Numbered from the stretch's first letter, positions 10,996-15,089 are shown. The stretch is DNA of 24,000 bases from Gammaproteobacteria bacterium BRH_c0 (GCA_000961645.1 LADM01000128.1:9945-33944); one strand, 5' to 3'. The notes: generated by a model not told the origin, from the sequence alone. Made by a program: numbers and translations.

Positions 10996-11418
10996 ATGAG
11001 AACCGGCTCTAAATGCCGCGGCTTTACCTTGCTCGAGATGATGATCGCCGTTCTGATTATCGCCATAGTCGCGGCCATCGCCCTGCCATCCTACCAGCAA
11101 TATATTGAGCGAAGCCGCGCGCGCACGGCTGCTGCTGACCTTATGGCCCTCGCCACCGCCTTCGAGAACCGGTTTCAGCGCCAGCTGAGTTATGCCGCTT
11201 CCGCCACCAGCACGGCCAGTACTGCCGCCACCGCCAATCTGGTGGTGGGGTGGCAGCCTTCCGCCGGTGATTTTTTTACCTACACAGCCAGTGCGACCGC
11301 CAGCACTTACGACCTCACCGCTACAGGCAGCGCTGCAATGAGTGGCTGTACCATCACCCTTGATGAGGCCAATGCCAAGTCTGCCTCCAGCGCCTGCGGG
11401 ATTTCGTCGTCATGGTAA
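10996..11418 (+). CDS. Type IVa pilin (PilE/PilA-like) with class III signal peptide
   Basis: The leader is MRTGSKCRG, cleaved before FTLLEMMIAVLIIAIVAAIALPSYQQYIERSRA, which is the canonical G/FTLxE prepilin motif with an N-terminal helix. A C-terminal Cys pair (SGCTITLDEANAKSASSACG) forms the usual disulfide loop. The start is moved from 10948 in the track to the ATG at 10996. Confidence 0.9.
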   Translation: MRTGSKCRGFTLLEMMIAVLIIAIVAAIALPSYQQYIERSRARTAAADLMALATAFENRFQRQLSYAASATSTASTAATANLVVGWQPSAGDFFTYTASATASTYDLTATGSAAMSGCTITLDEANAKSASSACGISSSW

Positions 11419-11885
11419 GGGGGCACAAGGGCTTCACTCTTATCGAGCTGATGATCACTGTGGCTCTTATAGCCATCCTGGCCATGGCAGCGGTGCCTTT
11501 CACGGCCTCCTGGCTTCACGCAACCCAGGTTCAGACTGCGGGGGCCAATCTGGAGCAGGCCTTTGCCAAAGCGAAGGCGTTGGCGCTGCGTAATCCCGCT
11601 GGCGTCACTGGCAGCGACAGCGCAGCGTCCGTGAAGCTTTCAGGCAGCACCGTGATCGTCTGTGCGGGCGCGCCTGGCGATGCCGGATGCGTTGTGGGCG
11701 GGGGCGCTGTGGCCTGGCAGGGGGATGTGACGGGTGGCGTCACCATTCAGTTGGCGGGCGCCGCGCTCACCTCCATCGTTTTCGACAACTCAGGGCAGGC
11801 GATTGACGCAAGCGGCAACGCTCTGGCCATTCTCGATGTGGATATCGCCAAAGGAGCAGCGAGCCATGACGCCCATCTCTATTAG
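11412..11885 (+). CDS. FimT/FimU (GspH-family) minor pilin
   Basis: The leader MVRGHKG is cleaved before FTLIELMITVALIAILAMAAVPF. It is followed by the GspH-type helix LEQAFAKAKALALRN. The start overlaps the upstream stop. Confidence 0.85.
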   Translation: MVRGHKGFTLIELMITVALIAILAMAAVPFTASWLHATQVQTAGANLEQAFAKAKALALRNPAGVTGSDSAASVKLSGSTVIVCAGAPGDAGCVVGGGAVAWQGDVTGGVTIQLAGAALTSIVFDNSGQAIDASGNALAILDVDIAKGAASHDAHLY

Positions 11886-12285
11886 CAAACACCGCAACCA
11901 GCGCGGCGATATCCTGATCGAAGCGATGGTAGGGGCGCTGCTGGTCAGTGTCATGTTTGCTGCGCTCTCCTATGCGCTGTCGCGAACCCTGGTGTCGCAG
12001 GGCTACGCCAACGCCCAATCTATTGCCCTGCTCGATCTGCGCAACGATGTGCTTCAGACCAAAGGTATCAATGCCCTGTGCGGCGGTGAGAGTCCGGGTT
12101 CAGTGCGCGGAAATCTCACCCTCAGCGCCCAGTGCACCACCGGCGATATTGCTGATGTGGGCATTGCTGGCCAGCAAATGACAATCACCGGCTTTGTCGG
12201 CAGCAGTTTCAGTCTTTCGACCACATCCAGCGCTGCGTCCCAGTCGCGTCTTGGTCAGGATGGCGTGATGATTGTTGACTACTAG
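11866..12285 (+). CDS. PilV-like minor pilin with non-canonical +1 residue
   Basis: AAGGAG at 11851..11856 precedes the ATG at 11866. The N-terminus is MTPISISKHRNQRG, then DILIEAMVGALLVSVMFAALSYALSRT. Gly-1 and Glu+5 are present, but Asp replaces Phe/Met at +1. The gene is positioned between the FimT-like and PilW-like genes. Confidence 0.7.
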   Translation: MTPISISKHRNQRGDILIEAMVGALLVSVMFAALSYALSRTLVSQGYANAQSIALLDLRNDVLQTKGINALCGGESPGSVRGNLTLSAQCTTGDIADVGIAGQQMTITGFVGSSFSLSTTSSAASQSRLGQDGVMIVDY

Positions 12286-13037: not shown

Positions 13038-13049
13038 GGAGGGCCAGTG

Positions 13050-15089
13050 ATGCCAACGTCCCACTTTGATTCACCGCGCCGCCAACAGGGCATCGCCACC
13101 ATTCTGGTATTGATTTTCGTGGGCCTGGCGGTTTCCGTTGCTGTGTTCAGTGCTGTCAATCAATTGCGCGGCGCCCAGGAGCAAAGTCTGGCGCTCCATA
13201 CCCAAACTCAGGCGCAGGCCAAAAACTGGGCTGGCGTGGAGATTGTTGCCCAGTATTTTCGCGCCAAGGCGCAGGCCAACCAGTGGCAGGCACTCAAGGA
13301 TGCTGGCAGTCTGGCGGCGGGAACAGCCATCAATATGGGCGTCACCGGCTTGGGGGCCGAGATTGTCAGCTTTCAGGAAGATGTGGATGGCAGTGGCGCC
13401 GACAGGGTCACCCTGGATATATCGGCAATCACCGATGATGCCACACGGGCCGAGGCCAATTCAGCAATCAGGGTGGTTTACCAATACGAGCCTGGCGGTG
13501 GTGGCGGTGGTTCAGGTGGCGGCAGCGATCCGGTAATGACGTTCAATCACGGGCTGCGCCTGGGCGGCAGCATCGTCATCACCACCCCGGCGGACCGGGA
13601 TTACGAGGTCAATGTGCGGGGCGAACTCGACGCCACCTACGGCAACAGCATCAGTGGTGTGGATGTGATCAACGCAACGGATTTTATCGCCATTGGCAGT
13701 GGCTCGTCGTTCAAACGCTTGAACTCCAATGGCGATATCCTCCTCACCGGAAGCGTCACCGGCGATGAAGAACTCAACGCCCGTGGCAATATCTGCCTGA
13801 CGGGCGGTACGGGTGTGGGTAAGGCGCGGGCCAACGGTTCTGTCTATGGCTCGGGGAGCGCCTCGTTCGGCGCCATAGAGGCTATCGGCAACAGCGACTA
13901 CACCGGCAGCAACCCCAAATGTAACAATTACCTTCTCAACGACAGTGGCGGGCAACCCTTTGCCGTCAATATGGCGGGCAATAATGCCGTTGTCAGCGTC
14001 AAGGCCAAGGGCAGTGTGCGCTTCAATTCCGGCACAGTGACTGCCGGTGTGCAGGCCGAAGGCGACCTGCGCGATACCAACTGGGGCGGAAGCCAAAGCG
14101 GTACCATTGGCGGAGTGGTGCAAAATAACGGCAACAACCCCGCCGTGCCAGCCAATATCAACGTGGTTCCGGGGTACAGCGTCGATATCACGCCCGTCGA
14201 GGAGGTTGTTATCCCCACCTCGACCTTTGATGCCTATGCCTACCGCAACAGCGCCAATTACGCCCTTTACATGGAAAGCGGCCAAAAGCGCATTACGGTG
14301 CGCAACGTCTCCGGTATTCCCGATGGCAACTACTATATGGCCTCCAACACCAGTGTCAGCGGGCCAAAATACGACCGCATCTGTAGCAACACCGGTTGTA
14401 CCGGCGCTTCCTACCCCTTTTGCAAGGGCTATTCCGACTACAACAGTTGCTTTGCTTATAATTCAGGCACTCAAACCTGGAGCCTCAACGGTGTCAGCCT
14501 GTCGCCGGGTATTATCTGGGTGGAGGGCAATCTGGCGGCGGGCAATGGCACTTACTACAACACCTTTATCAGCACCGGAAATATCACCACCTCCGGCAGC
14601 CACAAAACCGTTGCCCCCAATTTTGCAGGTTTCGCAGGGGGCAATTTCAACCACGCCGGGGTAAACATCACTTTCTCCGGCATCTGCACCAACGCCACGT
14701 ACCCCCATTACCCTGTGCAATTATGTGGCGACAATGGCAGTTACGATCCTGACGGTTCGGGTGGGCTGACGGACTTCTCCTTTATGGCAGGCAGCCTGAA
14801 CGGCGCAAACTATCAAGGGGGCGATATTTCGCTCGGTGCCAGCACGCTGGCATTTGGCAGTGTGCTGGCCGGCGATACCTATAACAGCGGCGGCAGTACA
14901 ACCATATTCGGCTATGTCACCGCACAGGGGCAGGCCACCATTAACTCACACCAAATGGGCGGCAGCACCCGGATTATCGTTGACGTTTTGCCGCCGACCT
15001 ATGTTCCCAGGGGTAGCATTTCCGTATACCCGCCTGGAGAGGCTGTGGGGTCGCCATCACTTTCTGTGCTCTGGACACGATATCTCTAG
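13050..15089 (+). CDS. Large PilX-N-domain protein fused to a Gly/Asn/Ser-rich, probably beta-helical C-terminal region (putative pilus-tip adhesin)
   Basis: GAGGAGGG at 13036..13043 precedes the ATG at 13050 (track start is GTG 13047). The N-terminus RRQQGIATILVLIFVGLAVSVAVFSAVNQLRGAQEQSLALHTQTQAQAKNWAGVE matches the PilX_N pattern. A GGGGGGSGGGS linker follows at about aa 150-160. About 520 aa of short G-x repeats then follow (GNICLTGGTGVGKARANGSVYGSGSASFGAIEAIGNS...) plus a Cys-rich patch (CSNTGCTGASYPFCKGYSDYNSCF). Confidence 0.75.
   Translation: MPTSHFDSPRRQQGIATILVLIFVGLAVSVAVFSAVNQLRGAQEQSLALHTQTQAQAKNWAGVEIVAQYFRAKAQANQWQALKDAGSLAAGTAINMGVTGLGAEIVSFQEDVDGSGADRVTLDISAITDDATRAEANSAIRVVYQYEPGGGGGGSGGGSDPVMTFNHGLRLGGSIVITTPADRDYEVNVRGELDATYGNSISGVDVINATDFIAIGSGSSFKRLNSNGDILLTGSVTGDEELNARGNICLTGGTGVGKARANGSVYGSGSASFGAIEAIGNSDYTGSNPKCNNYLLNDSGGQPFAVNMAGNNAVVSVKAKGSVRFNSGTVTAGVQAEGDLRDTNWGGSQSGTIGGVVQNNGNNPAVPANINVVPGYSVDITPVEEVVIPTSTFDAYAYRNSANYALYMESGQKRITVRNVSGIPDGNYYMASNTSVSGPKYDRICSNTGCTGASYPFCKGYSDYNSCFAYNSGTQTWSLNGVSLSPGIIWVEGNLAAGNGTYYNTFISTGNITTSGSHKTVAPNFAGFAGGNFNHAGVNITFSGICTNATYPHYPVQLCGDNGSYDPDGSGGLTDFSFMAGSLNGANYQGGDISLGASTLAFGSVLAGDTYNSGGSTTIFGYVTAQGQATINSHQMGGSTRIIVDVLPPTYVPRGSISVYPPGEAVGSPSLSVLWTRYL

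Follow-up and report, generated by a model that had tools for sequence, protein, structure and literature searches.

A mobile minor-pilin cassette of Proteobacteria whose K-type pilin is predicted to carry a beta-helical insert

Introduction

The K-type pilin of type IVa pili (T4aP) has a small sheet that is completed by the final ~10 residues of PilY1/PilC, and this licenses assembly; in GspK, in some PilK orthologues and in CpaL, whose ~470-residue middle is partly dispensable, the terminal strand belongs to the protein itself (PMC12918778). A beta-solenoid inserted before the last strand is found in ComZ of Thermus thermophilus (described in 2019; PDB entry 6QVI), a GspK-like pilin which binds DNA and has been argued to be a pilus cap (PMC6561018). 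All cyanobacterial PilX homologues have a bulky solenoid set into the K-type core ahead of the C-terminal strand; this solenoid has been proposed to replace the PilY1 plug and has been contrasted with the smaller proteobacterial PilX (bioRxiv 10.64898/2026.02.12.705559). Here, a cassette of five pilin-type genes (g1–g5) is described from a 24 000-nucleotide stretch of Gammaproteobacteria bacterium BRH_c0 (GCA_000961645.1, LADM01000128.1:9945-33944), which is referred to as the window and whose coordinates are used unless another locus is named. Its last gene, g5, probably encodes a K-type pilin of this interrupted kind. No paper describing the cassette was found in the literature.

The five genes lie head to tail on the + strand at 10996–15089 and are separated by gaps of 2–9 nt or overlap by 7 or 17 nt, a spacing typical of an operon.

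g1: 10996–11418 (alternative upstream ATG at 10948), + strand; 140 residues from 10996, assigned as a type IVa pilin of the PilE type
g2: 11412–11885, + strand; 157 residues, putative minor pilin in the GspH/FimU/FimT position
g3: 11869–12285, + strand; 138 residues, putative small minor pilin in the GspI/PilV position
g4: 12288–13037, + strand; 249 residues, minor pilin with a predicted GspJ/PilW fold
g5: 13047–15089, + strand; 680 residues, putative tip pilin in the PilX/GspK position (K-type) with a predicted beta-helical module

The order is that of a pilin followed by H-I-J-K candidates of 157, 138, 249 and 680 residues. We regard it as rather probable that the five genes are a self-contained, mobile unit encoding the tip proteins of a type IVa pilus, in which g5 would be a K-type subunit that carries its own terminal strand together with a tip module and would act without PilY1. 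The principle of a K-type pilin in which a built-in solenoid and an own strand replace PilY1 has already been published for Thermus, for cyanobacteria and, in another form, for Tad pili. What is distinctive here is the occurrence in Proteobacteria, the larger two-part insert, the Ser at +5 of the J-type pilin, the absence of Phe at +1 of the I-type pilin and the compactness of a mobile cassette that is also found on small plasmids.

Comparison with described systems

ComZ is the closest match in fold. Like g5, it has a GspK-type pilin-like N-terminal domain that is missed by pilin hidden Markov models (HMMs) and a large beta-solenoid connected via two short linkers between the penultimate and the last strand of the pilin sheet, an arrangement that for g5 is deduced from the predicted model. 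ComZ was the top match of the g5 model in a Foldseek search of the PDB (6qvi; E = 2.3e-3, probability 0.94), but the template-modelling (TM) score was just 0.22–0.27 and sequence similarity was not detected, either with the single sequence or with a profile searched against the PDB. The insert of ComZ is one triangular solenoid of ~380 residues, whereas that of g5 comprises ~490 residues in two helical runs and a middle region; the partner of ComZ is PilA2, encoded in the competence locus of one Deinococcota species, whereas g5 belongs to a five-gene H-I-J-K cassette of Proteobacteria. The cyanobacterial PilX proteins resemble g5 by description, being K-type minor pilins that are interrupted by a solenoid in organisms without PilY1; the present cassette differs in being plasmid-borne and mobile. 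CpaL/TadG of Tad pili (PMC12918778) is also comparable by description, with ~600 residues, an N-terminal domain resembling a minor pilin, a large middle and, at the very C-terminus, a strand that is predicted to complete the pilin sheet of the same protein, but it belongs to the T4c filament class and has CpaJ and CpaK as partners.

The FimU-PilV-PilW-PilX-PilY1-PilE set of Pseudomonas aeruginosa and other T4aP shares with the cassette the same roles, the H-I-J-K order, a PilE-type pilin and a K-type subunit without Glu5. The cassette differs from this set in that there is no PilY1, the PilE-type gene is first and not last, the PilV, PilW and PilX HMMs are unmatched, the J-type pilin has Ser at +5, the I-type pilin has no Phe at +1 and the K-type pilin is 680 residues long. 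GspI-GspJ-GspK of the type II secretion system (T2SS; PDB entries 3CI0 and 2RET) are similar in the GspJ fold predicted for g4 and in the G-H-I-J-K order. GspK brings its own terminal strand and has a domain inserted, as g5 probably does; the insert of GspK is, however, a small alpha-helical domain at a different position, g1 is assigned as a T4a pilin and not as GspG, and no genes for a Gsp machine adjoin the cassette.

Sequence and predicted structure of g5

No significant match to g5 was found in Pfam, NCBIfam or the PDB sequences, with either the single sequence or a profile of 40 sequences. The AlphaFold2 model of g5 (predicted local distance difference test, pLDDT, 86.5; predicted template-modelling score, pTM, 0.71) is divided into five segments.

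Residues 1–148: 13047–13490, + strand; leader ending in Gly, long helix alpha-1 (15–76) and strands 102–110, 119–129 and 137–148 (DSSP)
Residues 150–160: 13494–13526, + strand; linker GGGGGGSGGGS, pLDDT < 50 at 151–158, variable and gap-rich in the alignment
Residues 161–645: 13527–14981, + strand; predicted beta-helical module (DSSP), pLDDT mostly 87–96
Residues 646–670: 14982–15056, + strand; conserved LPxxYxP turn followed by a variable Gly/Ser tether, pLDDT < 50 at 659–668
Residues 671–680: 15057–15086, + strand; terminal strand (E671–679 in the model), pLDDT of the block 84

Part of the Gly/Ser linker is encoded by a 9-bp tandem repeat at 13493–13511. In the model the module is made up of two runs of short parallel strands around a mixed region at ~360–470. 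The tether varies in length, alignment columns 655–670 consisting mostly of gaps, and is followed by the short motif that the family conserves best, [VIL]-L-W-[STA]-R-Y-L-COOH; of 208 sequences, 187 have the Trp, 182 the Arg and 194 the Tyr. From the segment order, this terminal strand (671–679) is the probable strand four of the pilin sheet at the N-terminus. g5 fits the pattern of a K-type pilin with an insert because three strands precede the insert where a canonical pilin has four, because a conserved strand follows the tether and because two floppy linkers flank the insert. The 680-residue PilX fusion of the first-pass annotation is thus retained as regards the pilin-like N-terminus, the GGGGGGSGGGS linker and, in the model, the large beta-helical module, but the latter seems to be inserted ahead of the last pilin strand and not simply fused to the C-terminus, and the pilin-like part has ~150 residues and not ~190.

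The composition of residues 160–655 (14.9% Gly, 10.5% Ser, 9.7% Asn and 8 Cys) agrees with the Gly/Asn/Ser-rich, Cys-containing sequence reported before. The insert is acidic, with an isoelectric point (pI) of 4.84 and a net charge of −11; the family median is pI 5.2, and 71% of the homologues lie below pI 6. Cys 446, 459, 468, 547 and 560 are conserved, Cys 446, 547 and 560 being present in 199–207 of 209 sequences, as expected for an exported protein.

No PDB entry matched the g5 fold at E < 1e-3. After ComZ, the matches were to tapirins (E = 0.011–0.037), an ice-binding protein and a pectate lyase, and a Foldseek search against viral structures gave generic beta-helix matches only (TM ≤ 0.18). 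Tapirins are encoded at a type IV pilus (T4P) locus but are not pilins and have neither a class III signal nor a pilin domain. The tapirins matched, from Caldicellulosiruptor (PDB entries 6N2B and 4WA0), are beta-helical adhesins and were the second-best fold neighbours of g5, with a weak match. Among 40 g5 homologues, sub-threshold matches to FapA were found in seven and to bactofilin in four (best bactofilin E = 0.0043), both families being short-coil beta-solenoids. An assignment of g5 as a bactofilin (PF04519) was rejected: g5 itself gave no match, those of the homologues were sub-threshold and g5 has a pilin-type leader. Of the adhesin-like or bactofilin-like fold suggested earlier, the beta-helix is therefore what the model retains, the bactofilin and FapA matches being sub-threshold and confined to a minority of homologues.

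Identities of g1 to g4

g1 was assigned as a T4a pilin of the PilE type on the strength of its sequence matches. It has a short leader (MRTGSKCRG) followed by FTLLEMM and matches N_methyl (9.4e-10) and ComP_DUS (1.4e-10) in Pfam. The g1 family profile aligned over ~110–120 residues with solved T4a major pilins (E = 1e-17 to 1e-19; 8tum, 1.2e-18; 1oqw, 2.7e-17); the match to PilE of P. aeruginosa (4noa) was weak (0.036), that to GspG covered the N-terminal 65 residues only (6.8e-8), and there was no T2SS_G match in Pfam.

g2 has a canonical signal (HKG/FTLIELM) and matches N_methyl in Pfam (8.3e-9). Its NCBIfam match to GspH covers the N-terminal 54 residues only and is below the cut-off, and nearly all matches of its profile to PDB sequences are confined to the common N-terminal helix; the FimT/GspH label was taken from position and size. 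g3 gave only a weak N_methyl match in Pfam (0.063), with no match in NCBIfam and none among PDB sequences, the g3 profile included.

For g4, there was no Pfam or NCBIfam match above threshold and no significant match of the g4 profile to PDB sequences. The profile search returned 66 relatives, a few of them labelled PilW in the source annotation, and PF16074 is present in one weak match (E = 2.4e-4). The AlphaFold2 model of g4 (38 sequences; pLDDT 83.8, pTM 0.78) gave seven top Foldseek matches in the PDB that are all EpsJ/GspJ chains (probability 0.75–0.92, TM on target 0.42–0.55); the E-values are modest (0.02–0.13), and the probability falls to 0.04 with the eighth match. g4 is accordingly modelled with a GspJ/PilW fold. 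Its four Cys are invariant across homologues. Apart from this predicted fold of g4, the family names used here are positional. The gene order read by the first-pass annotation as PilE-, FimT-, PilV-, PilW- and PilX-like agrees with a pilin followed by H-I-J-K and with the fold predicted for g4, but the PilV, PilW and PilX_N HMMs are unmatched by g3–g5.

N-terminal signals

All five proteins have a prepilin-type N-terminus with a short leader ending in Gly followed by ~21 mostly hydrophobic residues, and the threshold of the N_methyl HMM is passed by g1 and g2 only. The sequences around the Gly are CRG/FTLLE in g1, HKG/FTLIE in g2, QRG/DILIEAM in g3, QLG/ISLLSLLIG in g4 and QQG/IATIL in g5. Glu at +5 is present in g1, g2 and g3 and absent from g4, which has Ser, and from g5. 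The Asp at +1 of g3 and the Ser at +5 of g4 are as recorded in the first-pass annotation, where the signals were called degenerate; this term does not suit residues that are conserved across homologues. Gly at −1 is kept in every homologue of g1–g5. In the g3 homologues Glu at +5 is invariant and +1 is Asp, Glu, Ser, Met, Ala or Val, never Phe; in those of g4, +5 is Ser with the single exception of L001 (Glu); in those of g5, Glu5 is never present and the N-terminal motif is kept across the family. Prepilin peptidase depends critically on Gly at −1; processing does not require Glu5, and Glu5 mutants can still join mixed filaments (reviewed in PMC4471445). Because the same residues are kept across homologues and Glu5 is dispensable for processing, the odd +1 and +5 residues are conserved family variants compatible with processing and not signs of decay. 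The lack of Glu5 in g5 is as expected for the tip-most, K-type subunit. It was also considered whether the acidic +1 of g3 neutralizes its own N-terminus and makes Glu5 of g4 needless; this idea fails where +1 of g3 is Met or Ser.

Conservation and mobility

Searches with g5 gave 45 close relatives and 399 cluster representatives at E ≤ 1e-3, mostly of 600–800 residues and aligned end to end. A survey of loci limited to one genome per species comprised 28 loci, in 24 of which the g5 relative comes after relatives of g1 and g2, and of g3 and g4 wherever these could be detected, in unchanged order; of the other four, two are truncated by the end of the contig and two are from Acidithiobacillus. 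g1 is syntenic in 23 loci. With the same order also on four plasmids (see below), the five-gene pilin/minor-pilin operon proposed earlier for 10996–15089 is borne out. The hosts are gammaproteobacterial (Porticoccaceae, Pseudidiomarina, Cellvibrio, Hydrocarboniphaga and Pseudomonas asuensis) and betaproteobacterial (Variovorax, Comamonas, Rhodoferax, Herminiimonas, Silvimonas and Vogesella), and the closest loci by g5 identity are those of a Pseudomonadota metagenome-assembled genome (MAG; 76%) and of Porticoccaceae MAGs (66–73%). The window probably derives from a marine bacterium of this group. Relative to the closest locus (L003), dN/dS was 0.11–0.18 for all five genes, a rough estimate as dS is near 1; the five genes are apparently under purifying selection.

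A search of proteins in a plasmid collection yielded full-length g5 relatives on six plasmids, four of which carry the five-gene cassette.

pA42P4: Psychrobacter, 8.5 kb; otherwise only repM, a gene for a replication DNA-binding protein, a relaxase gene and mobC
pALWED3.2: Acinetobacter lwoffii, 15.7 kb; replication and mobilization genes, an IS3-like transposase and hypothetical proteins
p2_010060: A. wuhouensis, 30.8 kb; replication genes, insertion sequence (IS) elements, a toxin-antitoxin pair and others
pUW386: Ralstonia pseudosolanacearum, megaplasmid of 1.83 Mb; no other genes annotated in the stretch fetched

The cassettes of the small plasmids are located at 2291–6255 of NZ_MN657097.1 (L029), 206–4263 of NZ_CP032287.2 (L030) and 7169–10998 of NZ_CP031710.1 (L032). 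That of pA42P4 is the sole cargo of this plasmid apart from the rep and mob genes. The pilin genes go unmentioned in the plasmid papers checked, those on the Acinetobacter plasmids included. One further locus of the survey (L024) is on a 971-kb plasmid of P. fluorescens. The plasmid copies keep the family traits, with N-termini G/FTL[VI]E, G/[VL]SLIE, G/VGLLE, G/T[TM]LIS and G/FATVL and the C-terminus KWARYI. On comparison of these loci the five genes are a unit that is horizontally mobile. Since an 8.5-kb plasmid is too small for a pilus machine, the cassette would have to use that of its host.

In several strains of Ralstonia solanacearum, megaplasmids (matches H7–H14) match g5 residues ~379–680 only; two of these records have an IS5 transposase annotated at the matching stretch, a sign that such copies may be disrupted.

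No PilY1/PilC domain (PF05567) and no pilus-machine domain was found among the window ORFs (open reading frames) scanned, g5 included, and there was no PilY1 in cis in the related cassettes examined, that of the 8.5-kb plasmid included, on which there is no space for it. The C-terminal domain of PilY1/PilC is a beta-propeller, whereas g5 is modelled as a beta-helix. The statement that no PilY1 gene follows the cluster thus holds for the window and for these relatives. Genes for a secretin, an ATPase or GspCLM were not found beside the cassette in any locus examined.

Genomic surroundings

The G+C content is 57–61% in the cassette and 46–52% in its flanks. The change is visible on the downstream side, where 57–61% in 11001–15000 gives way to 46–49% in 15001–17000, a stretch with a gene for a KAP-family P-loop NTPase (15372–17582, − strand); this boundary after the cassette suggests that the segments were acquired separately. 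Clustering of the flanking ORFs of the 28 loci revealed no neighbour common to different lineages, and the flanks vary (leuS-lptE-holA, PEP carboxylase, a GGDEF-EAL protein). Genes of the window outside the cassette include the following.

6453–7151, − strand; OmpR-type response regulator in the cassette neighbourhood
7183–8625, − strand; HD-GYP protein in the cassette neighbourhood
8854–10383, + strand; PAS histidine kinase upstream of the cassette
10510–10944, + strand; small ORF directly upstream of g1, without a Pfam or NCBIfam match
1087–2349, − strand; HipA-family toxin kinase with HipA_C and Couple_hipA domains
20980–22263, − strand; long ORF without a Pfam match, overlapping the Alpha-E gene on the opposite strand
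22270–24000, − strand; long ORF without a Pfam match

The first four of these genes are found again in the closest relatives only: response regulator, HD-GYP protein and kinase are present in L002 and L003, and the kinase in L001, which is cut just upstream. The C-terminal ~80 residues of the small ORF are 51–59% identical at the same position in L001–L003 only. As no flank is conserved across lineages, these four genes were left outside the system. A 15-bp unit, TGGGAAACGAACGGA, is repeated in 3.1 tandem copies at 10557–10603, between the histidine kinase gene and the cassette, and could be a candidate binding array for a response regulator. A scan for promoters and terminators gave no excess over shuffled sequence.

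In the Pseudidiomarina loci a GAF-PAS-GGDEF-EAL protein is encoded directly downstream of the cassette; with the HD-GYP, kinase and regulator genes of the window, such GGDEF-EAL neighbours hint at a link to cyclic di-GMP signalling. The most distant g5 relatives, in Acidithiobacillus (L023, 6305–11482; L025, 6323–11407), come after a platform gene of the T2SSF type (PilC/GspF-like) and three pilin-like genes, and this is the only lineage with a machine component beside a g5 relative. Downstream of the cassette in Cellvibrio and relatives (L022 and L027, ~12.5–20.6 kb; L019, 2.4–12.2 kb) there are several paralogues of ~420–560 residues, a 120-residue protein clustering with the response regulator and a ~730-residue protein, which together look like a putative chemosensory cluster.

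The other genes of the window encode, besides HipA, an AraC-type regulator, a TPR protein, a DsrE-like protein, an SMP-30/gluconolactonase-like (SGL) protein, the KAP NTPase and a circularly permuted ATP-grasp protein with its Alpha-E partner; the ORF at 20980–22263 may be spurious.

Proposed assembly

The gene content, conservation, mobility, N-terminal motifs and predicted folds described above can be combined into a scheme for the cassette. g1 would be a PilE-type pilin, g2, g3 and g4 would take the GspH/FimU, GspI/PilV and GspJ/PilW positions and g5 that of GspK/PilX. Once cut by prepilin peptidase at the conserved Gly, g5 would join g3 and g4 in an initiation complex like that of I, J and K, linked to the major pilin by g2 and g1. 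The complex would prime the pilus on a machine encoded elsewhere (PilBCD, PilMNOPQ), with g5, which like other K-type subunits has no Glu5, at the very top of the filament. In g5, ~490 residues of disulfide-containing beta-helix would be inserted after the third strand of the pilin sheet, and the chain would return via a flexible tether to the last strand (LW[ST]RYL-COOH) and so complete its own sheet. Canonical T4aP leave this step to the C-terminus of PilY1/PilC, which acts in trans; GspK, ComZ and CpaL perform it in cis, and if g5 resembles these three, the cassette would need no PilY1. The beta-helix would be displayed at the tip as a plug and probable adhesin. A canonical pilY1 cluster is likely to be present elsewhere in the genome and would not argue against a function of the cassette.

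The idea that the tip adhesin is built into PilX itself, put forward in the first-pass annotation as a compact alternative tip, is largely favoured in silico by ComZ as the best fold neighbour and by a conserved C-terminal strand that fits the strand rule of K-type pilins; as an architecture it is not new, given ComZ, cyanobacterial PilX and CpaL.

Several observations weigh against this scheme. Pilus-machine genes are absent near the cassette in the window and in most loci. The weak match to ComZ could reflect no more than the generic shape of a helix plus a beta-helix. The pairing of the terminal strand is deduced from the order of the segments rather than from model coordinates, and mean-field direct-coupling analysis (208 sequences) of this strand versus the pilin sheet was dominated by gap columns. 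None of the PilV, PilW, PilX_N or GspH/I/J/K HMMs of Pfam and NCBIfam is matched above threshold by g2–g5. Finally, we know of no described J-type subunit without Glu5, yet g4 has Ser at +5.

A further step, proposed tentatively, is that the cassette is a plug-in tip: a mobile alternative initiation and tip complex that takes over the resident T4P machine and changes the adhesion of the pilus, its K-type subunit carrying both the licensing strand and the module. On plasmids the cassette might serve the plasmid itself, for example by cell contact or DNA capture favouring transfer.

Alternative explanations

The cassette may instead build or cap a DNA-uptake pilus, the beta-helix being a DNA receptor of a competence pilus and plasmid carriage being tied to gene transfer. 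Its presence on small mobilizable plasmids of Acinetobacter and Psychrobacter, both naturally transformable genera, would suit such a role. g1 matches ComP_DUS in Pfam, but this is a broad PilE-type family. The best fold neighbour of g5, ComZ, does bind DNA (PMC6561018), but shares no sequence homology with g5, and the acidity of the insert (pI 4.84, charge −11; 71% of homologues below pI 6) speaks against generic DNA binding, so that this explanation is considered unlikely.

It is also improbable that the genes encode the G-H-I-J-K pseudopilus of a type II-like or polysaccharide-secretion system (compare cyanobacterial Hps) rather than an adhesive pilus. The order of a pilin and H-I-J-K is that of gspGHIJK, and the g4 model matches T2SS EpsJ/GspJ structures; GspJ and PilW share a fold, however, and this match does not discriminate between them. 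A large-solenoid subfamily of cyanobacterial PilX is tied to HpsA and polysaccharide secretion (10.64898/2026.02.12.705559), and the distant homologue in Acidithiobacillus follows a T2SSF platform gene. Against this, g1 is related over nearly its full length to T4a major pilins (E = 1e-17 to 1e-19) and to GspG over the N-terminal 65 residues only (6.8e-8), it has no T2SS_G match in Pfam, and no secretin, ATPase or GspCLM genes adjoin any of the loci examined.

A tip-displayed enzyme, with the beta-helix acting as a polysaccharide lyase or depolymerase and not as a passive adhesin, is quite unlikely. The weak fold matches to the pectate lyase PelI and to PL6 alginate lyases (E = 0.12–3) have low probability and low TM, and no lyase or hydrolase family was found by sequence in Pfam and NCBIfam. 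Many of the hosts (Cellvibrio, Teredinibacter, Porticoccaceae) degrade polysaccharides, but the family is also found in Acidithiobacillus, Thioflavicoccus, Pseudidiomarina and Acinetobacter.

That the non-canonical +1 and +5 residues mark a decaying, unused operon, as the sub-threshold N_methyl scores of g3 and g4 and the lack of promoter or terminator enrichment might suggest, is extremely unlikely, as the same residues are kept across classes, all reading frames are intact, dN/dS is 0.11–0.18 and the small plasmid pA42P4 keeps the cassette as its only cargo.

Significance

If the reading of g1–g5 as a mobile tip set with a self-completing K-type pilin is correct, two ideas of 2026, that a K-type pilin needs a terminal beta-strand for assembly and that a built-in solenoid can replace PilY1, would reach the Proteobacteria, whose PilX has so far been regarded as small and dependent on PilY1. 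The conserved Ser at +5 of the J-type pilin and the non-Phe residues at +1 of the I-type pilin would serve as natural tests of the rules by which pilins pack at the tip. The hypothesis is testable, as the Acinetobacter hosts are genetically tractable and the plasmids are small. A whole pilus-tip complex would then be transferable as a module of 4 kb, for which plasmids of 8 kb suffice, and pilus specificity would be horizontally exchangeable.

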